From positions 1-64,000 of IMG/VR virus record IMGVR_UViG_3300025000_000077: DNA of 64,000 nucleotides; one strand, written 5' to 3'. The stretch comes from a virus. Shown piece by piece: positions 9,266 through 57,757 of this stretch; the first letter of the stretch is position 1; every line of letters begins with the position of its first letter. The notes under the pieces are model-generated. The model was not told the DNA's origin. It was given only the letters and a program-made list of their open reading frames with translations, and did no database searches. The position numbers were made by a program, and so were the translations under genes.

Positions 9266-9553
9266 TTTTTATGCTCCGTTCTTGAGGCAAACTCGCCAAA
9301 AAACACCTGTATATTATTATACAAGTTGGGATATAAAAAATAGTGACAGTCAAACTTTAAATTAAAAAAAAGAAATTGATAATTAAAAATTAATCACCAA
9401 TATCAAATCCATCAGGCACATTTAAAAACTTTATACTCTCATCTGTCAAAATGTCCAGCTCATATAACAAACTAACCAACATCCGAAGCGCGTTAAGAGT
9501 CTCGCATGGAATCACAATTGAAGGGCGTTTATCCAACTCCTCAGTTTCCATAC

Positions 9554-9949
9554 TCACTCCTTAACAACCATTGCAGCCTTTTCAAGTGTCATCCGGTGAG
9601 TCTTTGCGATCTCAGATATTATATCACTCAGAGGCACGCCGCCCGCCTTCAACGCTGCAATGCGATCCAGAACAAACTTCGGAGTTGTATAATGATCTAC
9701 GCGATCCGAACGATGCCCCCATACATCACCCTGGATAAGCTGGATTCTCTGGTCCTCACAGAATACTCTAATGTCCTGCGAGATTTTGGCAATATACGAT
9801 CTGGGAAGTTGAATCACTTCAATCTTTGGGCACGTCCTTACAACTGAAAATACATCAGCAACGGACGGGCGGAACGAAAAATGCACTGCTCTCTCGGTAG
9901 GCTTTACATATGGAATTTCAGATCTTGATGAAATTACGCGAATGTCCAT
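9554..9949 (-). CDS. DUF1699 family protein (Methanosarcina-type)
   Basis: IRVISSRSEI...VHFSFRPS...CPKIEVIQLPRSY...IQLIQGDVWGHR. Confidence 0.85.
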   Translation of the reverse strand: MDIRVISSRSEIPYVKPTERAVHFSFRPSVADVFSVVRTCPKIEVIQLPRSYIAKISQDIRVFCEDQRIQLIQGDVWGHRSDRVDHYTTPKFVLDRIAALKAGGVPLSDIISEIAKTHRMTLEKAAMVVKE

Positions 9950-10089
9950 GTTTTTAGCTCCGTTCAGTTTTTTTAAAGGAAAATAGAACGATAAAAATAT
10001 AGGAGGTTTTTATATAAAAGTTTAATGGGTTGGAAAGTGGGAAAAAAAGAAATATGAGGAAACTCACTCTTCGGATCAGACTTTCTTTA

Positions 10090-10761
10090 TTATTTTGCAT
10101 CTTTAGTTATATATGGCGTATAGTAGCACAAACAATTCGGATGAGAAAGGGGTAAAGCATCTTGGATCAGAAAAACCCGTCTATCCAACCCTAAACAAAC
10201 ATCACATGTTCCGCCTTTATGCATAGCGTGCCTCTGCACATACTGTAAATTTCCTGATTCCCATGTGCGAATCTGACTCTCATATTGCATATTCCTAGTT
10301 TCCGTGAAAGCCGCGACCCTAGCCCGTTTATTGACTGCAAACTCTTCCAGTTTTCTTAACTCGGTATCGATCTGATCGGAAGTCCAACCTTCATTTTTTG
10401 CGCTCTCAAAAATATGCAGAACACTTTCACGAGTATCACTTTTTAGAGATTTTAACCACGGCTTGAATACTTTCTTTTCTGTAGTTCCTACAGTTTCAAC
10501 CACATAAGAACCGCCCTTCTCTTTTAATATTCTTTCATAGACGGCAGCCGATACTATACTTTTTTTAGTCATTTCAGTGGCGTTCATCTTGACAGGGGCA
10601 AGCCCAACAGTTGACCTCACGGCGTTAAGCTCTCTTAGAGCTTCATATGAAGCCGCCATTTGAGTTTTAAGAGCTGCTTTCGAGAGGGAGGCAATGTAGG
10701 CTAGGTAGAGTATTAAGAGTGCTTCATCGAGGTTAGATTCATTTTCTTCGTCTTCGGTCAC
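10090..10761 (-). CDS. Head morphogenesis protein (Mu gpF/SPP1 gp7-like)
   Basis: RARVAAFTETR...TCDVCLGLD...HPNCLC C-terminal motif; in the portal operon. Confidence 0.8.
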   Translation of the reverse strand: MTEDEENESNLDEALLILYLAYIASLSKAALKTQMAASYEALRELNAVRSTVGLAPVKMNATEMTKKSIVSAAVYERILKEKGGSYVVETVGTTEKKVFKPWLKSLKSDTRESVLHIFESAKNEGWTSDQIDTELRKLEEFAVNKRARVAAFTETRNMQYESQIRTWESGNLQYVQRHAMHKGGTCDVCLGLDRRVFLIQDALPLSHPNCLCYYTPYITKDAK

Positions 10762-12299
10762 TGGATCGCCTCCTCGAAAGTTCCAAGTGTGATCTCATCT
10801 AACTGCCCCCTAGCCCGCATATACTTCTCGTTTTCGGGGTCGCTGTCAATGCCTATGAATACTCTATTAAGCAGTTTACAGGCTTCTAGTGTAGTTCCTG
10901 AACCTGCAAATGGATCTAAGATAACGTCACCTTCACGGCTTCCCATTGTTATGAGGTATGACATTAATTTAAGGGGTTTTACCGTGGGGTGTTTGTTTTC
11001 GATGTATTTGTTTTTCTCAGATTTGGAGGGTTTGGGGGTTATTAAGAAGGGGAACGTTTTCTGTTGTTCTTCAGGGAGTTCGGTTATCTTTTTAGACCAC
11101 CATGCATCTAAGGAGAAATAGCGGGAAAAGTCGCCTTGATCGTTACAACCTGAATAAACATCTCCTTTTCCAAATGTTGCAGTTGGTGAATCGTGAATAC
11201 CCATCCCACTTTTATTTTTTCGTATGCTCGCGGTTGATTTTGTTATAATCCCCCGATCAAGTACATTATCCGAAACTAATAAATTCGCTGGAAATCTGCC
11301 TTCTGGGGATAATTCATACCCGCCTTTGAACGCGGGGGAGTTATCCCCGTAATCATTCTTTGAAGCTCCGAAACCCGTACCAGCTTTAGGAATTGTTTCA
11401 TCAGATTTATAGGGTATCCTACACTCATCAAGCCACAAACAACCATGCCCGTTATCTAAAACCTGATCTATATAGGATTTCGTTGATAATGGTTTCATCA
11501 CACAGATTATAACCTCAACTGCGGGTTTAAGAGAAGCCGTATAAGCTCCTGAGAATTCGCGGGCTTTGTCTGTGGCGGGGGCTGTATAATTAATATCAGT
11601 TTTTGAAAAAGTTCCAACCCCTGACAGATATCCGCCTCCATCAGCATAAGCATTTGTTTTATGTCTGGTGCTTAATATTTCCCGTTCTGCTTCTTCCCTT
11701 CTACGAATAGCGCGCTCAATTAATTCTATAAACCTCGGATTATTCAGTTTCAAAACATCTTTTAAAACTACCCACTGCTCCATAGTTGGAATATTAGCAC
11801 CGTTTTCCCAATTCCAAACACACCCCGTTAAACCACCCGTTTTGCTTGGGAAATACGTTGCTATATCTTTTTGAGAAAGTCCTAATAATTCCCTTGAAGT
11901 TTTAAGATATTGACATAATTCTTTTGATAATTCAGAATATTTCGCGTTAGCTGTACCTCTCTTGTCAATCAATTTATCAATAGCGGCAGACTTAGGAAAT
12001 CCACTAGCAAAACTCCAAAAAATACTAGAAAAATTAACATTAAACCCCGCATCCTCAAGCCGAATAATCATCCTACTAAGAACATCCTGTCTAGGGGCAC
12101 ACATAAAAAACCCAAATGCCCCCGGCTTCAATACCCTGCAACACTCTCTTAATGCCTCTTCTGAGGGTAACGCTTTATCCCAAGAAAGCCCCATGAATGA
12201 ATAGCCATAAGGAGGGTCCGTTACAATGCAGTCTATTGATTCATCAGGCAACTCTTTCAGGACGTCGGCGCAGTCGCCTATGATAACTTCGTTTTTCAC
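10758..12299 (-). CDS. DNA methyltransferase (beta class) with inserted XRE-type HTH domain
   Basis: VTDPPYG, HPTVKP, LDPFAGSGT; internal LKTSRELLGLSQKDIA...VWNWENGANIPT HTH. Confidence 0.9.
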   Translation of the reverse strand: MKNEVIIGDCADVLKELPDESIDCIVTDPPYGYSFMGLSWDKALPSEEALRECCRVLKPGAFGFFMCAPRQDVLSRMIIRLEDAGFNVNFSSIFWSFASGFPKSAAIDKLIDKRGTANAKYSELSKELCQYLKTSRELLGLSQKDIATYFPSKTGGLTGCVWNWENGANIPTMEQWVVLKDVLKLNNPRFIELIERAIRRREEAEREILSTRHKTNAYADGGGYLSGVGTFSKTDINYTAPATDKAREFSGAYTASLKPAVEVIICVMKPLSTKSYIDQVLDNGHGCLWLDECRIPYKSDETIPKAGTGFGASKNDYGDNSPAFKGGYELSPEGRFPANLLVSDNVLDRGIITKSTASIRKNKSGMGIHDSPTATFGKGDVYSGCNDQGDFSRYFSLDAWWSKKITELPEEQQKTFPFLITPKPSKSEKNKYIENKHPTVKPLKLMSYLITMGSREGDVILDPFAGSGTTLEACKLLNRVFIGIDSDPENEKYMRARGQLDEITLGTFEEAIQ

Positions 12300-13884: not shown

Positions 13885-14946
13885 ATGCGCGAATTTTTTA
13901 CAGAACGGAGCTACCCTTTGAAAAACGTTCATGAAGCTATCTTGGAACGCCTAGACTGGACTCAAAAAAAGGATGGGTTTACACATTACTATCCAGTTTC
14001 CGAGTTCCAAAAGGCACTCCCCACTTTTGAAAATATTCCCGTTATTTATGCCGCGCGCCATCCTCCTCTTGGAGTCCGAGGAAAGAACCTCGAAGATGTG
14101 CTGAGAGAAGTCGACGGCACGCTCGCGGGATACACGGAAAACGTTTTAATTAATTCTGCAGGCTCTCCGAAGTTAAAAGCTCTGTTACAAATTACTAACG
14201 AAGATGTTGAAGCCAGAATCCAGGCTGGAAAAATCTCAATATCTCCCTCTTTTTCTCACAATCAAATTTTAAACGGTCCCCTTGAAAACATCACCGGTGA
14301 CCACGTTTTACTTTATGATAGTGATCTTGGTATCCCTCAGGGAGATGCCACCGCTATCATTTGCAATCAAGATTCCACGAATTTCACTCTAAATCATGGA
14401 ATAGGCTATTTTGAAGGAGTCAATATGACAGGCGAAATAAAAACAATCGACATGGACCTCTACAACGACCTCCTAAGCCTGAAAAATAATCAGGCGGTCA
14501 TAGTAGACAATGAAAAAACTATCCTGAAGCTCAATCAGGATCTCGAAAAGAAGGACGATTCCATCCTGAAACTTAATCAGGATCTCACCGCAGAAAAGGA
14601 AACAGTCCTCAAACTGAATCAGGCACTTGAAGAAACCAAAAAGCAGGTTTCCGCGCTTGAAACTCAGATCAAGGAAGACGCTGAAAAAGTCTTCAAACAG
14701 AATCAAGATTCTTTTTGGACTGAATTGCCAGAGGGCATTAAAGATCAGTTCAAAGAAAGGAAGGAAGAACTGTATTCGGTTACCACTGCCCTGAAACTCA
14801 ACCAGGATATTAATAAATCTCTCCTGAAAATGGAAAAGCCTGACCTACACAAGGCAACCGGCGAACAGGCAACCCCCGACATGAAACAGAATCAGGATAC
14901 CAAAGAAGCTGAAGAAGCGTGGGATGCCACAGAGGAGCGGATCTAA
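13885..14946 (+). CDS. Prohead protease/scaffold fusion with nested scaffold start at 14425
   Basis: N-terminal domain (PVIYAARHP, ISISPSF, GDHVLL), C-terminal coiled coil; internal AAGGAG...ATG 14425 is in frame. Confidence 0.7.
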   Translation: MREFFTERSYPLKNVHEAILERLDWTQKKDGFTHYYPVSEFQKALPTFENIPVIYAARHPPLGVRGKNLEDVLREVDGTLAGYTENVLINSAGSPKLKALLQITNEDVEARIQAGKISISPSFSHNQILNGPLENITGDHVLLYDSDLGIPQGDATAIICNQDSTNFTLNHGIGYFEGVNMTGEIKTIDMDLYNDLLSLKNNQAVIVDNEKTILKLNQDLEKKDDSILKLNQDLTAEKETVLKLNQALEETKKQVSALETQIKEDAEKVFKQNQDSFWTELPEGIKDQFKERKEELYSVTTALKLNQDINKSLLKMEKPDLHKATGEQATPDMKQNQDTKEAEEAWDATEERI

Positions 14947-15569
14947 TGACCACTTGTGCAGCAGCAGACTTCACTAAAGTAGGCGGTGTAACCCGCACTT
15001 GCTGGCTAGACGAAGGTGCAATTACTGTAGGCACAGGCTACGGGCTAGGTGGTGGCTCCGGTCCAGTAAGAACATTCGCGGCTGAAATTACACAGGGGAT
15101 GGTCGTCGTTGTTTCTGTCGATGTGGCTAACACGTGGGCCAATACCAACGGGAATATCCTCGTAACAAGAATCGCAAACTCTGATGATCTTGTATGGGGG
15201 GTTGTGGTCTCTGAACCATCAGAAGGCGATATGGAAAACAGACCTGCAATATCAGGAGATGCTGATACCATCGCTAAGAGACTCGCAGGTAAATTCCTGA
15301 GAGCTGCTACAGTTTGGTTCCCGAATGTCACAGCCATGACGAAAGCGACTCTCGTAACCGCAAACGCCGGAAATGTAACACCCGGAACTCTTGAAATCCT
15401 CAAACTCGATGTATCTCAATGTATTGCGGGGGCCGGTATTTTTGTTAACGATCTTGCGAACTCTGGCTCAAAAACCATCTGTTCTATGCATTACCAGGCT
15501 AAGGCATCCGGGGTAACTGTACCTATCATGCTCGCAATGCTCGGGGGAACCACAGCAGCACAGACTTAA
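14946..15569 (+). CDS. Capsid decoration/cement-like structural protein
   Basis: TAATG coupling to the scaffold gene; immediately upstream of the MCP. Confidence 0.55.
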   Translation: MTTCAAADFTKVGGVTRTCWLDEGAITVGTGYGLGGGSGPVRTFAAEITQGMVVVVSVDVANTWANTNGNILVTRIANSDDLVWGVVVSEPSEGDMENRPAISGDADTIAKRLAGKFLRAATVWFPNVTAMTKATLVTANAGNVTPGTLEILKLDVSQCIAGAGIFVNDLANSGSKTICSMHYQAKASGVTVPIMLAMLGGTTAAQT

Positions 15570-15584
15570 CGGAGTTGATAAAAA

Positions 15585-24234: not shown

Positions 24235-24885
24235 ATGAACCAAATTGTAGGAACCTCTAAAAAACACACATTCAAAGCATATGACACTCTCGGAGCAGAG
24301 GTCACGACCCTTACAGATCCAGTGGTAAAATATAGAATAGATGGAGGAGATAAAACAACTCTCTCCACACCCACAATCTCAGCTTATGATTCTGATATGC
24401 GGGATTTTCTAATTACTGTACCGGATACACTGGCGGCAAATCCATATGTTACCATTTCGCTTTCTATCACTGCGACAGAAGGGGCCGCTGATATCCTAAT
24501 AGACGTTTTTCCTCTCTTAACACTTGCCGCAATTAATGCAGAGGTAGACACCGCCCTTTCTGATTTTGATACCGCAACCCCGATAGCAAAAACGTCAGAG
24601 CTCTCAGGGTACAATACGGAAAATGTAATCCCTCGCGGTTATTATGCTCTCGATGTTACTGCAAAAACAATCACGCTTTCGAGTCCTTATAATACTTTAA
24701 CAGTTGAGCAGATCCTCAGAATAAAAGATCTCACTACTAATTATATAATTTACGACTGCGAGGATTCAAAATATTCAACCCTCCCGATCTCAATAACATC
24801 CGGTGTTCTAACATACACAGCACCAGCAAGGGACGCAGCAGATAACGATGCACTCCAGATATTCTTTAATGCGGAGCTAGCATGA
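24235..24885 (+). CDS. Structural protein
   Basis: GAGGAG RBS; C-terminus paralogous to 17063-17410. Confidence 0.6.
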   Translation: MNQIVGTSKKHTFKAYDTLGAEVTTLTDPVVKYRIDGGDKTTLSTPTISAYDSDMRDFLITVPDTLAANPYVTISLSITATEGAADILIDVFPLLTLAAINAEVDTALSDFDTATPIAKTSELSGYNTENVIPRGYYALDVTAKTITLSSPYNTLTVEQILRIKDLTTNYIIYDCEDSKYSTLPISITSGVLTYTAPARDAADNDALQIFFNAELA

Positions 24886-35123: not shown

Positions 35124-36310
35124 TGCTCTGGTTTTTCCGCCCCCGGATCAGTATTCAAAAACCTAATGGGCAGAAATACTACCCAAAACAAGTTACTGCA
35201 TCAGTGACCGATGCTTATCCTTATTCAGATGCCCCCTATGCCCAAATAGAACTCGCTACGAATAGAAGTCCAGAAACTGCCGAGTACATCAATCCAGTCG
35301 AGGAGGATGATATCGTCAGGGTCCAGGTATCCTGTCGAATGTCGGAAAAGGAAAAATGTGTATTTGTGGATCTTTTTGAGGGTCGAGTCCGGTCCATAGA
35401 TGGGGAGTACAACACAAAAAACAATACTACCGTCTCATGCAGAGGGCACATAGATGAGGCAGCAAAACTTCTTATCGATGAGTCTAAAACGTGGACCGGG
35501 ACTATAGAGGCGAGAACCATTTTAGGCGACCTGGTTACTCCTGCCCGCCATGTTTCCCGACTTACGTGGCTGAATCAGGCTCCTCATGTTGATCAAAGTG
35601 GGGTAGTTAGTTTTACTGATCCCGAATCCGCATATGCAACAAAAGCAGATCAAACTTATTTATCAAGTGTATTCAAGGATCTTGAAAAAGAGTCGGGGAG
35701 CACTTGGAAAATAGGTACTAAGAGCACTTATACGGTGGGAGGCTCACTCGACAAAACGTATCTGACGTGGAAAAAACTTGATACCACACCCACAAATAAA
35801 TACAAAGCGATCCAGGGAACTGCCCGTTATCTAGGTAGCAATTTTGAAATTTCCATTGAAGACCAGGCGACCCAGGTTAAAATAAAAGGGGACACTCCCA
35901 CCAGTGGAACTCAGTACACTGGAACAGCTACGGATGCAACCGCAGTTGCTAGATATGGATACAAAACAGATGTAGACATCTACTCTCAATTACAGAGCAA
36001 TGCGACATGTGCGAGTATTGCTGCAGGTATCCTCCCGTCTAAAGTTTCAGCCAGTATTTCAGGTACTATAAAATTAGTTGGCACACCTGAAGCTCATCCG
36101 GGAGACATGGTTTATGTGAGATCGAGGAGCACGGAATTGAACGGAGCAATTGTCGCAGGGAATTTTAACGTTTATCGCGTCAGACATAATATCACATCGT
36201 CTTCCTATACTACAGAAATACAAGTCGGTGGAATAATAACCGATGCATACGATCTGATAAAAAACATAAAAACAATAGCAGTAACTACAAAATGTAATCA
36301 GGTAAAATAA
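35123..36310 (+). CDS. Baseplate hub/Tal-like tail protein
   Basis: TGATG coupling at 35121-35125; LFEGRV, GTPEAHPGDMV...VYRVRHNI. Confidence 0.65.
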   Translation: MLWFFRPRISIQKPNGQKYYPKQVTASVTDAYPYSDAPYAQIELATNRSPETAEYINPVEEDDIVRVQVSCRMSEKEKCVFVDLFEGRVRSIDGEYNTKNNTTVSCRGHIDEAAKLLIDESKTWTGTIEARTILGDLVTPARHVSRLTWLNQAPHVDQSGVVSFTDPESAYATKADQTYLSSVFKDLEKESGSTWKIGTKSTYTVGGSLDKTYLTWKKLDTTPTNKYKAIQGTARYLGSNFEISIEDQATQVKIKGDTPTSGTQYTGTATDATAVARYGYKTDVDIYSQLQSNATCASIAAGILPSKVSASISGTIKLVGTPEAHPGDMVYVRSRSTELNGAIVAGNFNVYRVRHNITSSSYTTEIQVGGIITDAYDLIKNIKTIAVTTKCNQVK

Positions 36311-36327
36311 AACGGAGCTAAAAAAAC

Positions 36328-43830: not shown

Positions 43831-44128
43831 AAATACATTAATTATAATCCAAATTATTAATCTCCCCAAATACCCAACCCACACCACGTCCCACACAAAA
43901 ACTCTACCCTAAACAAACAAAAAACCATACAAAACGCATAGCAAAAAATAACCGATGCCGTTTTAATGTTCAAGGAGTATAAAACAGTATAAGAAACTTA
44001 ACACCCAAAATAAAATAAAAACCTTAAAATACTATGAAGAAATATTAAATGTGCCTCAGTGTACTACCCCACATTGAGACTCAAATCCTCTGAAAAACAG
44101 ACCTCTTCTTCCTTAGAAAAACGAGCTG

Positions 44129-44207
44129 AAAAACCGCCAGGAGTTGAACGGAGCTAACGTTAAGAAACCTGGCGGTATCTCATGCAGTGTGCAAAACACT
44201 CTGCAAC
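44129..44207 (-). ncRNA. Predicted antisense sRNA: two hairpins, second loop complementary to the GAACGGAGCTA translation-start motif
   Basis: BRE/TATA-like CCAAAATAATATATA (44243-44229, minus); hairpin 44205-44183; 9-bp stem 44176-44168/44141-44133 with loop UUUCUUAACGUUAGCUCCGUUCAACU; followed by a U-tract. Confidence 0.6.
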
Positions 44208-44341
44208 TACTATTTTATGTTCTACCCCTATATATTATTTTGGTATTATTTTATTATATCCTCGGATATCCATTTCTGAAGTTATAATAATATATAATTA
44301 TACCGCAGCCGTTTTTAAAAAAAAGAAAGTTGAATTAATTT

Positions 44342-45535: not shown

Positions 45536-45551
45536 TGTTATAGCTCCGTTC

Positions 45552-46328: not shown

Positions 46329-46495
46329 TGTTATAGCTCCGTCCATATACTCTAATTTTAAAATTGACAACTGTTAAACGATCATTTAAATGATCAATTT
46401 TCCTTGAGTCCCTTTCACTCTGCAAACTTTTGAGAATCGCTGCCTTCTCGTCGATTAGATATTGTTTCCTAAGTGGGATCTCAACGCATTGCAAT

Positions 46496-47217: not shown

Positions 47218-47355
47218 TTTCATAGCTCCGTTCTTTTTGTGAGGATCACGTTTTTCTATACTAATACTACACACTTATGACATATAAACTTTACTATTAA
47301 TCGATTATTAATGGGTTGTTGGAAGATTTACAGTTGATTATCAATAGATTTATAT

Positions 47356-47889: not shown

Positions 47890-48045
47890 ATGAAAGTCGC
47901 ATATCTCAGAAAAGCAAACCCAGACGCCGTAAAAAGAATAACATCCTATCCGATCCAAAAGCACGGCAATCTATTTTTCGAGGGATTATTTATCTCCGCG
48001 CTGATTGCCGACCCACTCAGAATGAATCTAATAGAGGCGGTTTGA
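47890..48045 (+). CDS. Small hypothetical protein (51 aa, not in ORF track)
   Basis: MKVAYLRKANPDAVKR..., motif 8 nt upstream. Confidence 0.5.
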   Translation: MKVAYLRKANPDAVKRITSYPIQKHGNLFFEGLFISALIADPLRMNLIEAV

Positions 48046-48181
48046 ATGCCCGCTGAGGATTCTGATTTCTGGAATAATCCTGAATACTGTTTTTTCAGAC
48101 CCGTTGGGTTATGTGAACATCCAGAAACAAGGGCGATGGAGAGTGTAATAAGAGAAATTGTCCATTTGAGGATGGGATATA

Positions 48182-48607: not shown

Positions 48608-48849
48608 TGCCAGCATTTGAATTAGAAACTGAACTTTTTGATTATTATAGAAAACATGCCGGGAAACTAGGATGTAAACAGTGCTTTGACGAAAAGAAGG
48701 ACGAGATTAGGGCAATGAACCGAGAGGGGGCGGACGGGGGCCCTAACTGTCTATGTAAGGTCGATACCCCCTGCCCATGTGATGACGTTGAAATAGATCT
48801 CCTCGTAGATGGGATATGTTATTGTGAGATTTTCGTGTTGGATTGCTAA
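48607..48849 (+). CDS. Ferredoxin-thioredoxin reductase catalytic-subunit-like Fe-S protein
   Basis: GGPNCLCK...PCPC...DGICYCEIF matches the FTR CPC/CPC/CHC triad. Confidence 0.7.
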   Translation: MPAFELETELFDYYRKHAGKLGCKQCFDEKKDEIRAMNREGADGGPNCLCKVDTPCPCDDVEIDLLVDGICYCEIFVLDC

Positions 48850-48901
48850 GAATTTTGAAATTACCGAATGATTTTTTTGAAAACTGAACGGAGCTATTGA
48901 T

Positions 48902-49426
48902 ATGATAATTGCATTCGAAGGCGCGGACAAATTAGGAAAAACAACTCAGGCTAAATTATTGGCCGAGAAATTGAACTGTAAATATATTAAATTCCCGAAT
49001 GAAGAATTATACAGTGGGAAAATAATAAGACAGATTATTAATAAAGAACTTCCATTCGAGCCGGTTTCGTTTCAAGCGTTGCAGACTATGAACCGGTTAG
49101 AAACCTTTGAAAATATCGATTTCGAACAGTTGTATATATTCGACAGATACAAACTATCCGGGGTTGTTTACGGGCTGGCTGACGGCCTCCCGGAAGAATG
49201 GATCAGAGAAGTTTGTGATTTGTTGCCGGACCCTGATTACACGATCGTTTTTACCGGCGAATCGTATGGAAAGGACTCGGATATCTACGGTGAAAAACAG
49301 TATAAGATCAGACAGTTGTATCATAATGAAATTGTTGTATATAGATATCCGTGGATTGATGTGAGTGGCCGAACCATTGAAGAGGTACATGGTGAAATTT
49401 TAAAGATGGTGGAGGGGGTATTATGA
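48902..49426 (+). CDS. tmk: Thymidylate kinase
   Basis: IIAFEGADKLGKTTQ, KFP, FDRY..S...Y, PDPD. Confidence 0.92.
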   Translation: MIIAFEGADKLGKTTQAKLLAEKLNCKYIKFPNEELYSGKIIRQIINKELPFEPVSFQALQTMNRLETFENIDFEQLYIFDRYKLSGVVYGLADGLPEEWIREVCDLLPDPDYTIVFTGESYGKDSDIYGEKQYKIRQLYHNEIVVYRYPWIDVSGRTIEEVHGEILKMVEGVL

Positions 49427-50154
49427 CCCTCACGATAATCAAAACTTTTAGTTCAGATGATATTGATCAACTTAACGAAGAATTGTGGAGAACGATATAT
49501 CAAAAGGGGAATCCTCTCGTATTCGGGAAGCAGGACGAAACTAAAGCCGCTAGAGAAGTTTTTGCAATAATTCAGTTGTATGGGAAGGCTCTTGAGAAAT
49601 TATACAATGGTGAGCTTCCTAAAGGGTGGATGTTTGGGAAAGAAGCCAATAAGATTTATATTGAGATGCTGGAAGATCCTGATAGAGGAGAACAGCCTTA
49701 TACTTACGGTGAACGGCTTCATGGATACACTACTTGGAGTGAAACATCTGAATATGTTTCTTACGTGGATCAGATGGATGAATGCAAGATAGAGCTTGAA
49801 GAAACTATTAAATCAGGGATTCAAAATAATAGAATTTGTGGAGTTATTTGGAATCCGCTTGATATCTTTCTGAAAAATCCGCCTTGTTTTAATTGGTTCC
49901 AGCTCCGCACATCAGAAACTAATAAAGTATCTCTCCGTGTTCTATTTAGATCACACGACTACGGAAACGCTAATTTTGCGAATTTTGGAGCCATTATAAG
50001 AGCATTCCAGGATGAAGTAATCAGGCCAGCCGGGGGAATCCTCGAAGAGTTGATTTGTGTTTCAACGTCTGCCCATTTGTATAATAATGATTTAGATATG
50101 GTTGAAAATCTCATTGGGAAAGTTCCTGAGCATATCAGGAGGCTCTTAAAATGA
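49423..50154 (+). CDS. thyA: Thymidylate synthase (archaeal ThyA type)
   Basis: YTYGERL, WNP..D, PPC, FRSHD, ANF, SAHLY. Confidence 0.9.
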   Translation: MTLTIIKTFSSDDIDQLNEELWRTIYQKGNPLVFGKQDETKAAREVFAIIQLYGKALEKLYNGELPKGWMFGKEANKIYIEMLEDPDRGEQPYTYGERLHGYTTWSETSEYVSYVDQMDECKIELEETIKSGIQNNRICGVIWNPLDIFLKNPPCFNWFQLRTSETNKVSLRVLFRSHDYGNANFANFGAIIRAFQDEVIRPAGGILEELICVSTSAHLYNNDLDMVENLIGKVPEHIRRLLK

Positions 50155-50336
50155 TCCCACATCTCGAAACTCAGATACTCCACTACAAAGGGCTACGGGA
50201 AACCGGAACACAAAAACAATGCAAATGTGAGAGGTGCGGGACGTGGGGGCAGTGGCGGGGATACAGAGAGGAATTTTTAGAAGGGCGGCAGGGCCATGTT
50301 AGATGGGTATGTGCGGATTGCTTGGAGGTTGAGTGA
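50151..50336 (+). CDS. Small zinc-finger protein
   Basis: CERCG...VCADC. Confidence 0.55.
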   Translation: MIPHLETQILHYKGLRETGTQKQCKCERCGTWGQWRGYREEFLEGRQGHVRWVCADCLEVE

Positions 50337-51211
50337 TGCCGACTGAAATTCCCACATTCGAGGACATTGTAATAAAACATCGTTTGATCCAATTTTCGAA
50401 CGGAGATAAAGAAGAACTTGAAGAACTCTTAAGCATTTATTACGATGAGAAATGCACTATCAAAGTGGAAATCCCCGGCAATGAAAACAGGAAAGCTTAT
50501 TCCGAGGACGAAATAGGTTTTAAACCCGTACCGATGCCGAAAAAGTCCACAAAAAAAGGAAAAGAGGAAGAATCACAGACAGGTGACTATTCATTCCAAT
50601 TTTCAAATGAGACAGGCATTGAAAAACGTTTGAAAATCCGGTTTGAGAGGAAGAGCGTAGAGGATTTTTGCGGGACTGTAATAAATAATTGGGGTCGGTT
50701 TTTGGCGGAATTGGAAAGAGCCAGATTCAATCCTGAAATTGAAGATTTTAGAATAGTGGTGGAGGGCGATAGGCTTCAGGCCCTTACGTTTTTTTTCCCA
50801 TATCCTAAAATATGCAAATATTGTGAGAGTATCGGGTACAGGATGGAAAATAAAAAAAGGAAGTATTATTGTCGGATAACCGGAAAGGATGTAAATTACA
50901 ATTCGAATTGTAGGCAGTTGAGAGTCAAGAAGCGGAGTCCAAAACAGATCGCTCAACTGATATCATTCAAAAGAAAGAAAATCGGGCTGATCGAGGCGAT
51001 GGGCTTTCCTATTGAATGGTGTGGGAGCCGGGGGGAGGCAGCGACCCACATAAATGTGGCGGTGAAACAGTATTTTATAGTTCATTATGAGGAGATTTTA
51101 GGTTTGAATGCGGGTTTTAAGTTGGTTGGGGAGGATAAGGACACTTTGACTTTTAAGGCGGATGGGACTATATTTCGGGTGTTGAAAACAGCAGTGGACG
51201 TCCTAGCATGA
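50333..51211 (+). CDS. ERCC4/XPF-like nuclease (possible junction resolvase)
   Basis: TGDYS...FERKSVEDF...RFLAELERA...IVVEG. Confidence 0.8.
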   Translation: MMPTEIPTFEDIVIKHRLIQFSNGDKEELEELLSIYYDEKCTIKVEIPGNENRKAYSEDEIGFKPVPMPKKSTKKGKEEESQTGDYSFQFSNETGIEKRLKIRFERKSVEDFCGTVINNWGRFLAELERARFNPEIEDFRIVVEGDRLQALTFFFPYPKICKYCESIGYRMENKKRKYYCRITGKDVNYNSNCRQLRVKKRSPKQIAQLISFKRKKIGLIEAMGFPIEWCGSRGEAATHINVAVKQYFIVHYEEILGLNAGFKLVGEDKDTLTFKADGTIFRVLKTAVDVLA

Positions 51212-51555
51212 AAGGCAAAAACCACGAAAGAGCCGGCCTCATTTTTCTCTTTTTTTCTTCTATTTTTTTGGCTGCACAGCATTCTATTCGAGTAGTGCTC
51301 ATATGGGCTGTGTTTGTTTATATTTTTACAAAGTATATAACCCCGGATCTCGACACGAATTCAAGATCACGAAAACGACTCGGCGCGCTTGGGTGGGTAA
51401 TAGACAGGTGCTTTGGACATCGGGGCTGGCTGCATAGATACTGGTTATGGCCTTTATTGTTCATTCCTTTGTATTTGGCGTTCGGGTGGGTATCCCTTGG
51501 CGGGCTGTCTGCTGTTTATTTGCATCTGATTTGTGATGGGTTGAGTCCGTTTTAA
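51208..51555 (+). CDS. DUF2227-like metal-binding membrane protein
   Basis: MKGKNH, TPDLD, HRGWLH, LHLICD and TM segments. Confidence 0.7.
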   Translation: MKGKNHERAGLIFLFFSSIFLAAQHSIRVVLIWAVFVYIFTKYITPDLDTNSRSRKRLGALGWVIDRCFGHRGWLHRYWLWPLLFIPLYLAFGWVSLGGLSAVYLHLICDGLSPF

Positions 51556-51655
51556 TTTTTTTGTTTGTTTATTTGCGTTAAGTATATATAGTATCGATGT
51601 GTAGTTAGTAACTAGAAGCACATTACAAGGACTGACACATAAGAGGGTTTGAAAC

Positions 51656-51883
51656 ATGCAGAAAATTGAAAGAGATACAATTCACAGAATCGCCGATGAA
51701 CTCACTATAAGAAAATACGATTCCGCAGTCGAGCTTTCAAAGAGTTACTATTTTAGCAAGTGGGCTTCTGAATTCTCCCAGGGAGACGAAGATATAGAAC
51801 AGAGGCTCTTTGATGAGAATGATGAAATTACTAAATTTGTGTACAAATTGGCAAAAAAATACGGGATTGAAATAGAAGAATGA
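51656..51883 (+). CDS. Small hypothetical protein
   Basis: First gene after the promoter cassette. Confidence 0.65.
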   Translation: MQKIERDTIHRIADELTIRKYDSAVELSKSYYFSKWASEFSQGDEDIEQRLFDENDEITKFVYKLAKKYGIEIEE

Positions 51884-51898
51884 GGAGTTGAAAAGAAA

Positions 51899-52096
51899 AT
51901 GAACCACAGGGAACTGCATAAAAAAGTCAGAGCCATGAAAAACACTAAACTTGTCGAAAGAAACGAAGAACTGTATGGATTAATCATAAAACTTGTAGTT
52001 GATGTAGTCGAAGAAAAGGACGATGCCGGTAGGAAAGAACATTTAGAAAAAGACCTTGAAGAATATAGGACATGTGAAAATGCGAGGGGGAATTGA
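51899..52096 (+). CDS. Small hypothetical protein
   Basis: GAGGAG RBS. Confidence 0.6.
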   Translation: MNHRELHKKVRAMKNTKLVERNEELYGLIIKLVVDVVEEKDDAGRKEHLEKDLEEYRTCENARGN

Positions 52097-52341
52097 ATAA
52101 ATGAAACCTAGAGAATATCCACTTCATAAAACGAAACCTAGAAACATTACTATAAAAAATGTAATTGCTGAAACGGCTGGGAAAATAACTGAGAGAGGTT
52201 TTGTTTATGTAACAACTGATCCCGATTTGATCGGAAAGAAGGTTACTATCCTAATTGAAGAGTTTTAATTTTTTTCTTCTTTTTATTTGCGTTAAGTATT
52301 TATAGTTTCGATGTATATTTAGTATATAGAGGTACGATAAA

Positions 52342-52542
52342 ATGGCAACAAAAGACAAAAAAATCCAAGCTGCAATAAAAAGCGCAAAAAGCAAAAATGA
52401 AGTTTACCAAATCCTGGAACATTTCAGACTCCCCGCCAGTGAAGAACGGAAAATAGTAAATGCCTGGCAGAATGTGCAAGAAATGCTTATAAGACATGAA
52501 CAGGGGGCTTATTATACCCCCTCAACCCAGGCGGTGGCCTGA
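52342..52542 (+). CDS. Small hypothetical protein
   Basis: First gene after the second promoter cassette, GAGGT RBS. Confidence 0.65.
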   Translation: MATKDKKIQAAIKSAKSKNEVYQILEHFRLPASEERKIVNAWQNVQEMLIRHEQGAYYTPSTQAVA

Positions 52543-53130
52543 ATGGTGACTCGAAAGGAGGCTAGAATGTGGGGGTGTTTGAACTGCACGAAGGATGTTT
52601 TTGTGGCAGTGGAGATATGTCAGGCTTTCGGGCTTGGGAAGGAAGAAGAGGAGAGAGCTCTGAGCTTGTGGGATAGTAAGAGGAGAATTGTGAGGAATTC
52701 AAGGAGGGCTGTAGTTTGAAATCGTGTGGTGGTTGCCTTCATTGGGTCCGGGTTGATGTCCCTGAGCAAATAATGGGGTACTGTCCGAAGCAGGGAAAGA
52801 GACGGCATCGGGATGGGGATTGTGATAAGTACGAGGTGCGTTTAGAATGACTGAATGCGAAGGTGACTGTGAAAACTGCCCTTATGGGCTTCAAAGCCAG
52901 ATGGAATGTCAGGATTTATATGAGGAATGGTTAGCGGAACGAAGGAAACTATAAACGAATATGAATAACTGTCCTTTTTGTGATGATTCCTGGTTTTTTC
53001 ATTCGGGGGAGGTATGTGTTTTCATTTATACATTTTTATTTTATTTTTTCGATGGTTAGGAAGTTTTATATACACGGTGGTACATAGTAAGTACTGTAAT
53101 GGTACAGTGTACCGGTGGAAAGGTGAAAGA

Positions 53131-53289
53131 ATGTCGAGATCTGAAAAGAAAACAATAACCGTAGATAAAGAAGACCACGAAAAAATAAGATCCATTGCTC
53201 TCAGAAATGGAATGGATATCAAGGATATGGTAATCTTCACATTTAAAAAAACGTTTCCTGGTGATTTTCCCGAAAAGGTTATTGCATAA
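53131..53289 (+). CDS. Small RHH-like regulator
   Basis: AGGTGA RBS; MSRSEKKTITVDKEDHEKIRSIALRNGMDIKDMV. Confidence 0.6.
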   Translation: MSRSEKKTITVDKEDHEKIRSIALRNGMDIKDMVIFTFKKTFPGDFPEKVIA

Positions 53290-53373
53290 ATTATAGTATA
53301 TACTATAATAATTAATTATAGTAAGTACTATAAAAAATAAATATTCAAATAACGTTGGAACGGAGCTAATAAA

Positions 53374-53883
53374 ATGGGAATAGACGAAGTTAACAGCACC
53401 CGTGGAAGAAAGAAAAAGAACACCGGGCGCGAAACACAACATGCGATATATATTGATCCGGATGTATGGGAAGCGGCTGGCCATCTGCCGGAATCCAGAC
53501 CCGATATCATCAGGCAAGCTTTTCTTGATAAAATTTCTTATTACCAGAGTGACCTCCCTAAATTAAAGTGGCAATTGGAGGACGTTCGGAAACAGATTCA
53601 ATCGTTTTTAGCTACAGAGGCAGTTATAGTTTCTCGGATTGAACAACTCGAATCGAAAGCCATTTTTGATGTAAGTGAACGAGAGAAAGACGCCGAGTTG
53701 AAGGAAACTGCGATAAAGGAAACCCTAACGATGTGCAGGGCGTTCAAAAAGAGCATGGGTTATCATCATTATTCGAAACTATCCGAGTTGTCAGGGTTTG
53801 AGGCCGCCAGGATAGAGGTTTTTTTGAAGGATTCGAAGTTCAGGCCATCCGAAGAGGCAGTGCGTGTTTTTTATACGGGGTGA
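53374..53883 (+). CDS. RHH/coiled-coil protein co-transcribed with MCM
   Basis: HAIYIDPDVWEAA...RPDIIRQAF plus coiled coil; motif 7 nt upstream. Confidence 0.6.
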   Translation: MGIDEVNSTRGRKKKNTGRETQHAIYIDPDVWEAAGHLPESRPDIIRQAFLDKISYYQSDLPKLKWQLEDVRKQIQSFLATEAVIVSRIEQLESKAIFDVSEREKDAELKETAIKETLTMCRAFKKSMGYHHYSKLSELSGFEAARIEVFLKDSKFRPSEEAVRVFYTG

Positions 53884-53887
53884 GCTG

Positions 53888-55966
53888 ATGGACAACTACC
53901 ACGACACAAAAGAAAAACTCAAAACTTTTTTTAGTCCTGGTGCATATGTTAACACGGGCAAAAACTGTAAAGATTTGAAAGCGAAGCAGTATTGGGACGA
54001 CCTGCTGGCTTTAAGTTCGAAATACCCATATGAAAAAAGTTTATATGTTGAATACAGGCACATTGAATATTTTAATAGAGAAATAGCTGACCGTTTGATA
54101 TCAGCCCCGGATGAGTGGTTCGTGGCTGCAACTGATGCTATAGCTGAGATGTCTTTTCCTACGGTGGATATGCCTAATATAAATGTCCGTGTTATTGGGT
54201 TGCCTCTTGATTTCGAAGTCGGGATATCAAAACTGAGGGGGGGACATTTGGATCGTTTCTTGGCTATCCGGTGTGTAATTTCAAAGGCTTCTGAAGTGCG
54301 CCCTGGTTATGAAGTGGCTGCTTACCAGTGCATGAGGTGCGGGCATGTTACAAAAGTTGAACAGTTGAAATACACTGACATGCGGCAAGAGCCGTATTCA
54401 GGCTGTGAAAATGACACATGCGGGAAGAAGGGCCCTTATAAAATATCAGAAGAAGAGTCTGTAAAATTTGATCACCAGTATTTGAAAATCCAGGAACCAA
54501 TCGAAAACCTCCGAGGTAAACAACCTGAATTTCTTAATGTATCATGCGCCGATGAAATAGCTGGAAGGTCGAACCCGGGTGATAAAGTAATCATAACTGG
54601 AATTTTAAAGGGGAAGCCAAAGACTGTAAAAGAGGGGGTAACTAAATATCTGGATTTCGTTTTTGTTGCCAATTCCATTGAAAAATCTGATACTGATTAT
54701 GAAAATCTTGAGATCCTGCCTGAAGAGGAAGCGCAGTTCAGACAGTGGGCAAGTGAGGGAGTATTAAAAGAAAAAATATTGAGGTCCATAGCTCCTACGA
54801 TATTTGGTCTGGAAGAAGTCAAATTGGGTTTGGCCCTGCAGATGGTCGGTGGTGTGCCAATTGATTTCGAAGACGGGACACGGAAAAGAGGAGATATCCA
54901 TATAATGTTAGTCGGTGATCCCGGCGTAGCAAAAAGTCAGTTATTAGAGTTCATTGCTAAGTATTCCCCGCGCGCCGTTAGTTTTTCAGGAAAATCAACC
55001 AGTGAGGCGGGCCTAACAGGTGGGGCCGTGAAAGATGAATTAGATGGTAAATGGTGGATTCAGCCGGGAGCCCTAACGCTTGCAGACGGTGGTGTATGTT
55101 GCGCTGACGAACTTGATAAGATGAAGACGGGGCAATTAGGATCAATCCACGAAGCACTTGAGCAACAGATGGTCCATATTAATAAAGTTGTTAAGGCTGA
55201 CCTGTGGACCCGGACTGCTTTCTTAGGAGCTGCAAATCCCAAATACGGGCGTTATGATAAATATACTCCAATAGCGGAACAGATCACACACGGAGATGCA
55301 TTTATTTCGAGGATGGACTTGCTTTTTGTCCTGCTTGATACTCCGAATGAAGCGACGGATAGGAGGCTCGCAAAGCATATTTTAGGGACTCTACGCGGGA
55401 AGGCAGACATATCAGAGCCGGGGATGAATCTTGAGCTTCTTAGGAAGTGTGTGGCTTATATTAAAACTCATGTGTTCCCGGTACTTACGGACGAATCCGA
55501 GGAAATGATAATTAACTTCTTTGTAGGGACCCGGGTTGCAGCTAATGGACGGACTGACACTGTTCCAATTACCGCGAGAACACTTGAAGCAGCTTTCCGG
55601 CTTGCGACTGCAAACGCCAGGATGAGACTATCAGATACTATAACTGAAGAAGACGCCGAAGCTGCTGTGAAATTATTATACTCTAATTTAAGGAGTGTGG
55701 GAATTGACCCGGAAACGGGGGAACTGGACGCAAACGTTATCGCGTGCGGGACTTCCATGAGTCAAGCGAAAAAACTCAGGAAATTATGTACTATAATTAA
55801 ATCACTTTCCGAGAGAGACACGGCGAAATATCAGGCTGCTCGAAAAGAGGAAATTATAGATAAGTGCATTGGAGAAGGGATTAAAGAACCTGAGAATTTG
55901 CTCAAAAAACTGAAGCAGCAGGGAGACATCTTCAGCCCGGAAGAAGGATATTATAAAGTCATGTAA
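53888..55966 (+). CDS. mcm: MCM replicative helicase
   Basis: Zn finger CMRC..C..C, RGDIHIMLVGDPGVAKSQ, GALTLADGGVCCADELDKM, HEALEQQ, AANP, SRMDL, ITARTLE; start at 53888 after GGGGTGA. Confidence 0.97.
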   Translation: MDNYHDTKEKLKTFFSPGAYVNTGKNCKDLKAKQYWDDLLALSSKYPYEKSLYVEYRHIEYFNREIADRLISAPDEWFVAATDAIAEMSFPTVDMPNINVRVIGLPLDFEVGISKLRGGHLDRFLAIRCVISKASEVRPGYEVAAYQCMRCGHVTKVEQLKYTDMRQEPYSGCENDTCGKKGPYKISEEESVKFDHQYLKIQEPIENLRGKQPEFLNVSCADEIAGRSNPGDKVIITGILKGKPKTVKEGVTKYLDFVFVANSIEKSDTDYENLEILPEEEAQFRQWASEGVLKEKILRSIAPTIFGLEEVKLGLALQMVGGVPIDFEDGTRKRGDIHIMLVGDPGVAKSQLLEFIAKYSPRAVSFSGKSTSEAGLTGGAVKDELDGKWWIQPGALTLADGGVCCADELDKMKTGQLGSIHEALEQQMVHINKVVKADLWTRTAFLGAANPKYGRYDKYTPIAEQITHGDAFISRMDLLFVLLDTPNEATDRRLAKHILGTLRGKADISEPGMNLELLRKCVAYIKTHVFPVLTDESEEMIINFFVGTRVAANGRTDTVPITARTLEAAFRLATANARMRLSDTITEEDAEAAVKLLYSNLRSVGIDPETGELDANVIACGTSMSQAKKLRKLCTIIKSLSERDTAKYQAARKEEIIDKCIGEGIKEPENLLKKLKQQGDIFSPEEGYYKVM

Positions 55967-55973
55967 GGTACAT

Positions 55974-56120
55974 TTCCAGTGGAGTTATATTATATTATAT
56001 TACATTGCTTTCTAATTAATTATAGTTATAGGTATTACTATAATTAATTAATATACATCCTATAGATAGTGTTTTTTCACTTAATTTTTTTCTTTAGTAA
56101 GTTGAGTACATTAATTATAG
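55974..56120. other. Canonical ORB core TTCCAGTGGA followed by an AT-rich tract
   Basis: TTCCAGTGGA 55974-55983, directly after the mcm stop. Confidence 0.4.
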
Positions 56121-56163
56121 TATGTACTATAATCAATTAAAAACCGATGAACGGAGCTACAAT

Positions 56164-56307
56164 ATGTATAGAAATCATGGAAAACACAATCCTGAAAAAT
56201 ACTATAATAAATGTGAGTTTACCGAATCTTTTACGAAAATCCCGGCTTTTGTCATAGTCTGCAATGCTGACGGTCCAATCAAGGAGGACGAACATGCAAC
56301 TCTCTGA
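56164..56307 (+). CDS. Small hypothetical protein
   Basis: Motif 6 nt upstream of ATG 56164. Confidence 0.5.
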   Translation: MYRNHGKHNPEKYYNKCEFTESFTKIPAFVIVCNADGPIKEDEHATL

Positions 56308-56659
56308 TTCTGTATCCCTCCTCCTGCCTGTCCCTTCCCGCGATCCAGTCACATTCACGGAACCCCCACAAGATCCTGAATTCTTCCTGGATCTAAAAAA
56401 ACACTTAAACAAACAACCGGACGCAATCAAAGAACGAATCGAATTTCATAAGAAATATCCATTCTGGTCCATATATCGAGTGCGGGATGAATTCGCTAAA
56501 TCCTACTCGGAAACATATCTCAACGATGTGATGCATTTTGCTCGCTCAAATCCTCATATGAACGCAGTAGAAGCGGCTCAGGCGTTTTGTTCGAAGTACA
56601 GGGGGTATCTTATTGTTTATGGCGTTGAACTCACAGAAAGAGCGTTCACGAGGTTGTAA
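56294..56659 (+). CDS. Hypothetical protein
   Basis: AAGGAGG RBS before ATG 56294. Confidence 0.6.
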   Translation: MQLSDSVSLLLPVPSRDPVTFTEPPQDPEFFLDLKKHLNKQPDAIKERIEFHKKYPFWSIYRVRDEFAKSYSETYLNDVMHFARSNPHMNAVEAAQAFCSKYRGYLIVYGVELTERAFTRL

Positions 56660-56985
56660 TAATGATTCTTAAAGCCCTTCTAAAACTCCTTAAAATAATA
56701 ATCCTCCATCCAAGACGCTGTGAAAACTGCCAATATTGGAGATCACCGAAGTGTTCACAGCCGTTATACTATAACGTGGTCCCCCTCTCAAAGTGCGGCA
56801 AGTGGGCACGGAGAAGCCGCTGAGTTAATTTTTACTTGAAAATGGTATGAATGTATTCGGGGTTATTTGATACGGTTAAAACAGCTTAGAATCAATATTA
56901 CTTTTATTTGAGTTCATTACGTAATTGTATTTATATGATTACAGTAAGTTATTTATAGTATTACGTAGTAGTATTAGTATAGAGG

Positions 56986-57315
56986 TTGAAACAGATGGAC
57001 TACAACGCAACAATGGAAAATGAGATTGTATTGAATGAAGAACTTAGAAATTATGCTTGCACTGCTCAACAGAAACACATGACGATTGATATAAAAATAA
57101 ACGGGCGGTGGAATATGGGGCACGCCTGTATAACTGATAAACTAATACAGTTTAATTATTCAGCAGGGGGCAAGCATCATTTCTTTACCCCTGAAGGATT
57201 CGAGCAGTTTCTTATCAAAATCCCCTCACCTGAATCAATAGAAAGGACGAACTTTAATATTTTTCACAGCAGTAAGAAGACAACGGGGCAGCTTCTAAGA
57301 TGCTCTTCTTATTAA
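56986..57315 (+). CDS. Hypothetical protein
   Basis: Own TATA promoter, GAGGT RBS; start probably 56995. Confidence 0.6.
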   Translation: MKQMDYNATMENEIVLNEELRNYACTAQQKHMTIDIKINGRWNMGHACITDKLIQFNYSAGGKHHFFTPEGFEQFLIKIPSPESIERTNFNIFHSSKKTTGQLLRCSSY

Positions 57316-57356
57316 TTCTTTTTTTGTCTTAGAGGAACTTGATAAACTATTAAAAC

Positions 57357-57542
57357 ATGAGGTTAATAATGAATAATATTTGGAGAATACTGAGTGCAAC
57401 TGGCACGGGTATAAGTTTTCAACCAAAAAATTTGATGGAATGTGGATCAATTAGATGCATTGACTGCATATATTTTGATATGTGGAGCGAAGAACTACAC
57501 AAATGCACTTCATATCTTAAGTTTCTAAACGAGGTTAAATAA
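57357..57542 (+). CDS. Small Cys-rich protein
   Basis: RCIDCIYF...C. Confidence 0.5.
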   Translation: MRLIMNNIWRILSATGTGISFQPKNLMECGSIRCIDCIYFDMWSEELHKCTSYLKFLNEVK

Positions 57543-57543
57543 A

Positions 57544-57729
57544 ATGGTTCCACCGCTAACCGAAAAACACACCCTCAAAAAAGGCTATCTCTCGTTCCAT
57601 GCAACAAAACAAGAACCTCTTATCTACTTCACCGCAAAAGCAGGAAGTAGAGGTAACATTGGTATGGGTTCATTGAACGAGGGAGAAGAATTTATTATAA
57701 TTCCGGTGAAATATTTAGGTACAGAATAA
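57544..57729 (+). CDS. Small hypothetical protein
   Basis: GAGGT RBS. Confidence 0.55.
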   Translation: MVPPLTEKHTLKKGYLSFHATKQEPLIYFTAKAGSRGNIGMGSLNEGEEFIIIPVKYLGTE

Positions 57730-57757
57730 TCCTCGTAAAAAGAACGGAGCTAAAACA

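Follow-up and report, generated by a model that had tools for sequence, protein, structure and literature searches.

A start-associated nucleotide tag in a probable Methanosarcina virus and a candidate viral antisense RNA that may read it

Why does a virus set the same nine nucleotides before a dispersed set of its genes if only four of them can pair with the ribosomal RNA of its host? The question is posed by the first 64 kb (hereafter, the window) of the 75,260-bp IMG/VR virus record IMGVR_UViG_3300025000_000077, in which the word GAACGGAGC, commonly followed by TA and here called the tag, recurs just upstream of start codons. An initial annotation of the window, made from the sequence alone, had proposed that this motif defines a regulon and is more than a means of Shine-Dalgarno (SD) pairing. 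The second part of that proposal stands, because the word occurs only at control level in the genomes of the very probable host, the 3' end of host 16S rRNA complements nothing in it except GGAG, and the portal gene does not start downstream of its copy. That the tag defines a regulon is something we infer, and the reader that we tentatively propose for it is a viral antisense small RNA (sRNA).

The window holds 15 exact copies of GAACGGAGC, compared with a mean of 0.19 and a maximum of 2 in dinucleotide-preserving shuffles; the remaining 11 kb of the record contain none, and no other 9-mer or 10-mer of the genome is over-represented to the same degree. Twelve of the 15 are followed, after 6-8 nt, by an ATG or TTG at the head of an open reading frame of at least 47 aa, T-A directly follows the 9-mer in 12 of the 15, and all but one (14/15) are sense relative to the local genes (Table 1). 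The three exact copies with no start 3' of them are those at 13703(-), 36139(+) and 44146(+); the one at 36139..36147 could be the single chance copy. Four near-copies head the capsid gene, the tail-spike gene, the RNA-ligase gene and one further structural gene, and the tagged set amounts to ~17 genes, comprising replication genes, virion genes and several small proteins. In the 12 start-associated exact copies and three of the variants GGAG stands 7-11 nt before the start. All 13 exact sites listed by the initial annotation are placed correctly, most of its copies do lie just before starts, and its three variants are real (15567-15575, TAACGGAGT; 36310-36320, AAACGGAGCTA; 46344-46336, GGACGGAGC(TA)); its list was incomplete, however, missing the exact copies at 36139-36147(+) and 44146-44154(+). 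It was also right that other genes use ordinary SD sites: most untagged genes have AGGAG, GGAGG, GGTGA(T) or GAGGT 4-10 nt before the start, which indicates that the virus relies on the SD system of its host and that the tagged genes are a distinct subset.

Could the host ribosome, then, be the reader of the whole word? Two viral genes point to the host, one encoding a DUF1699 protein and the other a beta-helix protein with a disaggregatase-related domain. Relatives of the DUF1699 protein turned up only in Methanosarcina/Methanosarcinaceae genomes (196 confirmed matches) and, among 14 control genomes, the family was found in M. acetivorans only, which makes a Methanosarcina very probably the host. 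In three complete Methanosarcina genomes the 16S rRNA 3' end reads ...GCGGCUGGAUCACCUCCU, ending GGAUCACCUCCU. The tag pairs with this anti-SD via GGAG alone, as had been anticipated from the usual archaeal sequence, at -5.8 kcal/mol versus -16.9 kcal/mol for a full SD, and the GAAC and C(TA) flanks are left unpaired. Elsewhere in the 16S rRNA there is no complement to the tag longer than 6 nt, even with G-U pairs allowed. Pairing with rRNA beyond GGAG was thus rejected, given that the 3' end fits 4 nt only and internal sites reach at most 6 nt. As judged by pairing, the GGAG core qualifies as an SD and the whole word does not.

Nor is the word a signal of the host itself. In the Methanosarcina genomes (n = 59; first 5) the 9-mer is present in 2-26 copies each, no more than its reversed-pattern control, and counts of CGGAGCTAA likewise equal the controls; the density of the tag in the virus is roughly 50-100x that in host genomes. 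None of the 19 host copies inspected lies before a start, most being inside coding sequence, and across the host loci that surround DUF1699 genes, 1.28 Mb in total, the 8-mer is at or below expectation and again in coding sequence. One host copy sits in a virus-like A-rich context (genome G001, position 4,038,945), with no viral genes nearby. We rejected the host-signal reading on the grounds of control-level counts in the 59 genomes and the lack of start placement.

The portal gene provides a further view of the problem. As the initial annotation had noted, its copy falls inside codons 3-6: counting from the A of ATG 13711, the motif (13703-13695) begins 8 nt downstream. Scanning metagenomes with a portal alignment yielded nine contigs encoding portals that are 72-83% identical, and all nine share an invariant block comprising a transcription factor B recognition element (BRE) and a TATA box, a variable spacer of ~21 nt, the ATG, 5 nt and then the exact 9-mer. 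Across the ten portal starts the 9-mer is invariant, three codon third positions included, and the parts that vary are the TATA-to-ATG spacer and the codons beyond the motif. This pattern argues for selection at the nucleotide level on the motif in the portal gene. An in-frame start 3' of the motif is found neither here nor in the nine relatives, which places the portal start upstream of the motif. With a TATA box that ends ~21 nt short of the ATG, the portal promoter (CTAAAAT-C-TTTTTTATAT) probably gives a leaderless mRNA, an arrangement that agrees with the earlier suggestion of an antisense or protein-binding role for this copy.

The motif is also kept before the gene of a protease/scaffold candidate (3 relatives), which is encoded between the portal and the major capsid protein and gave no family match, and before DUF1699 (3 relatives). 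For the protease-candidate gene the TATA geometry places the predicted transcript start about at the motif. Its TTG start (13918) is conserved in three relatives, where ATG 13931 reads ACG; ATG 13885 precedes the point at which transcription is predicted to begin. Automated gene calling would probably assign the wrong start here.

The same relatives differ from the window virus in one nucleotide of the tag. Their tags read GAACGGAGCA, the position after the 9-mer being A in all 16 of their exact copies, and at the portal, protease and DUF1699 sites this position 10 is T here and A in every relative. The same change at three independent sites is unexpected from drift or from a host-ribosome reader and points to a single virus-encoded reader that differs between lineages. 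Separately, an extra gene located between protease and portal in relatives (L002 1873, L006 2094, L008 980) contains TAACGGAGCTAG in sense orientation and away from starts, the sole copy in the relatives with the T-A flank of the window virus.

What might such a reader be? The genes of the 40.4-47.2 kb region are all on the minus strand, with a gap of ~650 nt between two blocks beside the serine recombinase gene, and this gap holds the copy at 44146. It is the only copy antisense to local transcription, and it bears the same lineage-specific TAA flank as the start copies. On the minus strand the gap contains a predicted RNA of ~78 nt (Table 1), the second hairpin of which carries in its loop UAGCUCCGUUC, the complement of the motif copy 44146-44156. 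The minus-strand fold has a minimum free energy of -34.3 kcal/mol (z = -5.0; 0/200 shuffles as stable), and the apical UUAGCUC is unpaired with a probability of at least 0.98. Tag and loop are perfectly complementary over 11-12 nt, the duplex being worth -17.9 kcal/mol compared with -5.8 kcal/mol for tag and anti-SD, and the chance of an exact 12-mer in a 26-nt loop is ~10^-5 to 10^-4. The internal substitutions seen in the start variants (A2>G, A3>G and C9>U) all retain pairing with the anti-tag through G-U. When all gene starts were ranked by duplex energy against the whole loop, shuffled loops gave as many targets at <= -12 kcal/mol, and therefore only the exact-match class is meaningful. 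A U5 tract directly follows the hairpin 2 stem on the minus strand and is succeeded by more T runs, and a T8 run on the upstream side is a probable terminator separating the upstream operon from the sRNA unit; the BRE/TATA-like box lies in AT-rich sequence between this run and hairpin 1. Transcription of the hairpin from the minus strand is favoured because of the T runs and the BRE-before-TATA order.

A distant virus, G006 (73.5 kb), has a resolvase that is 86% identical to that of the window virus at the protein level and an MCM operon 70% identical at the DNA level. It has one tag copy only and no hairpin, and its orthologous tail-tube and MCM-operon starts have plain AGGAG and GAGG sites. 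None of its k-mers is enriched in the manner of the tag, hence it has no second tag/loop pair. We count this virus, which lacks both the use of the tag and the hairpin, in favour of the antisense reading.

We tentatively propose, with somewhat less than even confidence, that GAACGGAGC(TA) is a virus-lineage-specific 'addressable' ribosome-binding site (RBS) that is read in trans, most likely by the ~78-nt viral antisense sRNA. The GGAG core would be a minimal 4-bp SD at the normal distance, which would account for the tight spacing, and the invariant flanks would form a private 9-12-nt address on ~17 mRNAs: those of the portal, the protease/scaffold candidate, the capsid protein, the tail tube, the tail spike, the disaggregatase-like protein, DUF1699, thymidylate kinase (tmk), RNA ligase, the first gene of the MCM operon and small proteins. 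The reader would be a virus-encoded factor acting in trans, the likeliest candidate being RNA from the minus strand, 44205-44128. Pairing would begin between the apical UUAGCUC and GAGCUAA of the tag and then spread; once formed, the duplex would hide the SD or, in the leaderless portal mRNA, positions +9 to +19 and would keep the 30S subunit from binding, so that one RNA would repress translation of replication and virion genes together. Minus-strand transcription of the hairpin, its pairing with the tags and the repressive direction are all inferred from sequence. The portal copy favours this antisense proposal, since downstream of a leaderless start the motif cannot act as an SD and could act through occlusion. 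The fuller picture, in which ~17 mRNAs, one of them leaderless, are under one antisense RNA and tag and loop co-evolve between virus lineages, we hold more cautiously still; under it, relatives with A10 tags would be expected to have the loop UGCUCCGUUC, with U opposite A10 instead of A opposite T10.

Several observations weigh against an antisense RNA. The contigs of the relatives, 2.6-12.7 kb long, stop short of the hairpin region. A spacing of 6-8 nt is required by an SD and not by occlusion, so the tag could be purely cis-acting, and the tagged genes include those for the most abundant virion proteins, which fits a simple 'strong start' signal. The plus-strand fold is also stable (z = -3.8) and would expose not the complement but the tag itself, the CGUU of the anti-tag is predicted to lie within a 4-bp mini-stem, and the G-U argument is based on three substitutions. 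Rfam yielded no match for the hairpin RNA or, at gathering score, for any other part of the window, the C4 antisense RNA model included, and no RNA run is listed as containing this virus; contigs of three runs yielded nothing on strand, start or end. A search for a tRNA identity likewise gave none.

Alternatively, the tag could be read by a viral sequence-specific RNA-binding protein that represses or activates translation, much as T4 RegA or CsrA-type regulators do, a reading that we consider unlikely. The hairpin at 44146 would then be an unrelated terminator, or a plus-strand decoy or operator that titrates the protein. The lineage-specific flank change calls for a virus-encoded reader whether or not this is an RNA, the tag always stands in an A-rich and presumably single-stranded context, and the hairpin folds on the plus strand too, with the tag in its loop. 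The virus moreover has uncharacterised small proteins, an ASCH (PUA-like) protein and a weak OB-fold match. However, ASCH and OB-fold are weak leads, and no recognised sequence-specific RNA-binding domain was found among the viral proteins; the T runs on the minus-strand side and the BRE-before-TATA order favour minus-strand transcription, and a protein would leave unaccounted for the G-U compatibility of all internal variant substitutions.

It is similarly improbable, in our estimate, that the tag has no trans-acting reader at all and is simply the preferred efficient initiation cassette of this lineage, that is, a weak SD set in unstructured, A-rich sequence and maintained by selection on expression level, with the hairpin copy a relic or coincidence. 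All start-associated copies do have GGAG at SD distance, and the tagged genes include the high-demand tail tube, capsid (as a variant) and scaffold/protease candidate. The function of the start-associated sequence (SAS) of mycobacteriophages, moreover, is also unexplained after 15 years (PMC3203893). Such a cassette is nevertheless hard to reconcile with host genes that never use the word, with flanks that cannot pair with 16S rRNA and with a portal copy that lies 3' of the start and yet is invariant in ten genomes. It also leaves unexplained the concerted T10/A10 switch between lineages whose host ribosome is presumably the same, as well as the exact 12-mer in a 26-nt loop, given the low chance of this match.

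A third reading, which we regard as very unlikely, treats the tag as an RNA-processing site, cut by a viral or host endoribonuclease to inactivate mRNAs or to release short-leader monocistronic ones. There is a precedent in T4 RegB, which cleaves GGAG in early SDs; several copies of the tag are at gene junctions inside operons (45395, 45551, 48886 and 57742), and the predicted primary 5' end of the protease gene coincides with the tag. Yet no nuclease candidate is linked to the tag, and cleavage explains the hairpin copy and the concerted flank change no better than the other readings do. Finally, although the virus encodes DNA methyltransferases, a serine recombinase beside the hairpin region and helix-turn-helix (HTH) proteins, it is hardly credible that the tag acts as DNA (a transcription-factor, methyltransferase or recombinase site), as the distance to the start codon is fixed while that to TATA is ~18-57 nt or there is no TATA, the orientation strictly follows the gene strand and some copies lie within upstream coding sequence in operons. 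An antisense RNA thus remains the reading that we prefer, at the tentative strength given above.

Table 1. Copies and variants of the tag, and elements of the predicted small RNA unit (window coordinates)
Feature	Position	Strand	Context
Exact motif, then AT not TA	9273..9281	-	7 nt before ATG 9265, 402-aa beta-helix/disaggregatase-related protein
Exact motif +TAA	9957..9965	-	7 nt before ATG 9949, DUF1699; kept in L003, L009, L010
Exact motif +TAA	13695..13703	-	Codons 3-6 (K-N-G-A) of portal gene, ATG 13711
Exact motif +TA	13903..13911	+	6 nt before conserved TTG 13918, protease/scaffold candidate
Variant TAACGGAGT	15567..15575	+	9 nt before ATG 15585, major capsid protein
Weak variant, CGGAGCTA kept	24869..24879	+	4 nt before ATG 24882, 145-aa structural-module protein
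Exact motif +TAA	26375..26383	+	8 nt before ATG 26392, tail tube; within structural operon
Exact motif	36139..36147	+	Inside tail gene 35123-36310, sense, no start codon near
Variant AAACGGAGCTA	36310..36320	+	9 nt before ATG 36328, tail spike protein
Predicted ~78-nt small RNA	44128..44205	-	Two hairpins, then U5
Predicted hairpin 1	44205-44183	-	Fold prediction
Predicted hairpin 2	Stem 44176-44168/44141-44133	-	Fold prediction; 9-bp GC-rich stem, 26-nt loop
Exact motif, TAA flank	44146..44154	+	Non-coding gap, loop of predicted hairpin
BRE/TATA-like box CCAAAAT-A-ATATATA	44229..44243	-	Ends ~23-24 nt before hairpin 1; resembles portal promoter
T8 run	44315..44325	-	Shortly past stop 44342 of last gene (64 aa) of upstream operon
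Exact motif +TAA	45387..45395	-	8 nt before ATG 45378, 130-aa protein; within 3' end of upstream gene
Exact motif +TA	45543..45551	-	7 nt before ATG 45535, 51-aa coiled-coil protein; right after RNA ligase stop
Variant GGACGGAGC+TA	46336..46344	-	7 nt before ATG 46328, RNA ligase
Exact motif +TA	47225..47233	-	7 nt before ATG 47217, 50-aa protein, first gene of minus-strand operon; TATA ~46 nt upstream
Exact motif +AA	47873..47881	+	8 nt before ATG 47890, 51-aa protein
Exact motif +TA	48886..48894	+	7 nt before ATG 48902, thymidylate kinase
Exact motif +TAA	53358..53366	+	7 nt before ATG 53374, 169-aa protein, first gene of MCM helicase operon
Exact motif +TA	56149..56157	+	6 nt before ATG 56164, 47-aa protein
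Exact motif +TAA	57742..57750	+	7 nt before ATG 57758, 65-aa protein; inside operon

Turning to the genome as a whole, the final 126 nt of the record (75135-75260) repeat positions 5-130; the genome is terminally redundant or circularly assembled and, because of this repeat, probably complete. Despite the repeat, the IMG/VR label for the record is 'linear' and the CheckV completeness estimate 72%. The virus, which is uncultured and tailed, encodes a Mu-type portal, the homologues of which carry PF06074, together with small and large terminase subunits, a capsid protein, a lambda-like tail tube, a tape measure and tail spikes. Its other genes include those for an MCM helicase, thymidylate kinase, a ThyA-like protein, an ERCC4 nuclease, the RNA ligase and the serine recombinase. 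The gene of the ASCH protein (PUA-like, putatively RNA-binding or RNA-modifying; 48182-48607) lies just 5' of the tagged tmk, and this is the sole recognisable RNA-related domain besides the RNA ligase. The gene of the small serine recombinase, made up of a resolvase domain and a C-terminal HTH, adjoins the hairpin gap, the two together taking up 43024-44340. The gap is strand-asymmetric, being C/A-rich on the plus strand, and may contain the recombination site of the recombinase or an origin.

Searches for further relatives gave the following picture. The portal protein, used singly or as an alignment, had no match in IMG/VR or GTDB genomes; queries of IMG/VR with MCM, resolvase and DUF1699 returned only distant viruses without the motif, and GenBank phages included no relative. 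A portal 46% identical is encoded on a 12.8-kb contig. When IMG/VR was scanned for the box TCGGAGCTAA, or for the hairpin stem with its loop left free, the matches listed were unrelated phages only. For window positions 40400-60399, examined in runs X1, X3 and X5, the source groundwater metagenomes contain this virus plus diverged relatives (80-95% alike) of several replication-module segments, and a wastewater library contains short, diverged pieces, so that related viruses evidently exist in further sequence data.

Two additional repeated sequences were seen in the window. One 19-bp palindrome, TTATAGTA-A/T-GTACTATAA within TTAATTATAGTAnGTACTATAA, is found at 53311-53333 and 56110-56132 (+), in two promoter regions, one belonging to the leader gene of the MCM operon and the other to the operon that follows, ~25 nt upstream of the motif at 53358 and ~20 nt upstream of that at 56149; a viral repressor probably uses it as its operator. 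The second sequence, the 8-mer CCCGGCTG (sense reading CAGCCGGG), has 12 copies versus ~0.6 expected, at 17438, 25034, 26652, 27015, 29583, 29658, 29667, 37026, 37092, 50034 and 55068 on the minus strand and at 8759 on the plus strand. Eleven of the 12 thus share one orientation relative to the plus-strand genes, mostly in the structural module, and the word could stem from a bias in peptides or codons or serve as a polar signal in the DNA.

The motif and its complementary loop provide a testable model in which one small RNA gates the translation of a viral programme. If the model is true, Archaea would have their first virus-encoded trans-acting sRNA regulon, and archaeal viruses their first described post-transcriptional master switch; the model would supply a concrete mechanism for the unexplained start-associated sequences of phages and mean that viruses can layer private translation 'addresses' onto the SD system of the host. 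The tag and its loop would then also constitute an orthogonal RBS/sRNA pair for Methanosarcina genetic tools. Should the cis-acting reading alone be true, the tag would still be a clean, conserved and host-independent translation signal in a poorly studied group of viruses.

How does the tag compare with known systems? It shares with an ordinary SD the GGAG core at SD distance, but only 4 of its 9-12 conserved nucleotides pair with host 16S rRNA and the host makes no use of the word. Phage hairpin antisense RNAs that keep lytic functions off are exemplified by c4 of P1/P7 and CI of P4 (Rfam C4, RF01695). As in these, the candidate here is a small hairpin RNA with a loop complementary to short repeated boxes at the RBS. 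In c4, however, the two boxes are in one operon (icd-ant) and the RNA is processed from the same transcript, whereas the boxes here are spread over 48 kb and many operons, and there is no sequence or Rfam similarity. In the host genus itself, the M. mazei sRNA154 (through loop 2 on glnA2) and sRNA41 (on ACDS operons) mask RBSs (PMC5867862, PMC11456600). The blocking of an RBS by a loop, including at sites inside polycistronic mRNAs, is what we propose here as well; unlike the M. mazei sRNAs, which are chromosomal, have few and imperfect targets and are experimentally supported, the viral RNA is predicted only and would act on ~17 sites via one identical tag.

Finally, the tag has a counterpart in the SAS of Cluster K mycobacteriophages, a 13-nt asymmetric word present in 11-19 copies per genome (Pope et al. 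2011, PMC3203893). Both are short asymmetric words placed in one orientation a few nucleotides before starts (9-12 nt long and in 15 copies here), and both combine a GGAG SD core with conserved flanks that have no potential to pair with 16S rRNA. SAS is virtually absent from the host genome, much as the tag is at control level in its host; both are kept at orthologous genes across related viruses and have occasional off-start copies, and a subset of each has an inverted repeat just upstream (ESAS there, the 19-bp palindrome at two copies here). The sequences are nevertheless unrelated (GGGATAGGAGCCC for SAS versus GAACGGAGCTA here), and since the hosts also belong to different domains of life, the comparison is one of analogy and not of homology: by its features, the tag is an analogue of SAS and not a member of that sequence family. 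They differ too in that SAS is limited to the non-structural arm whereas the tag heads structural as well as replication genes, one of its copies being inside a leaderless gene. Lastly, SAS has no reported complementary RNA, but the loop of a predicted sRNA contains the exact complement of the tag; to a sequence class known since 2011 without a mechanism, this archaeal virus thus adds an explicit candidate partner.

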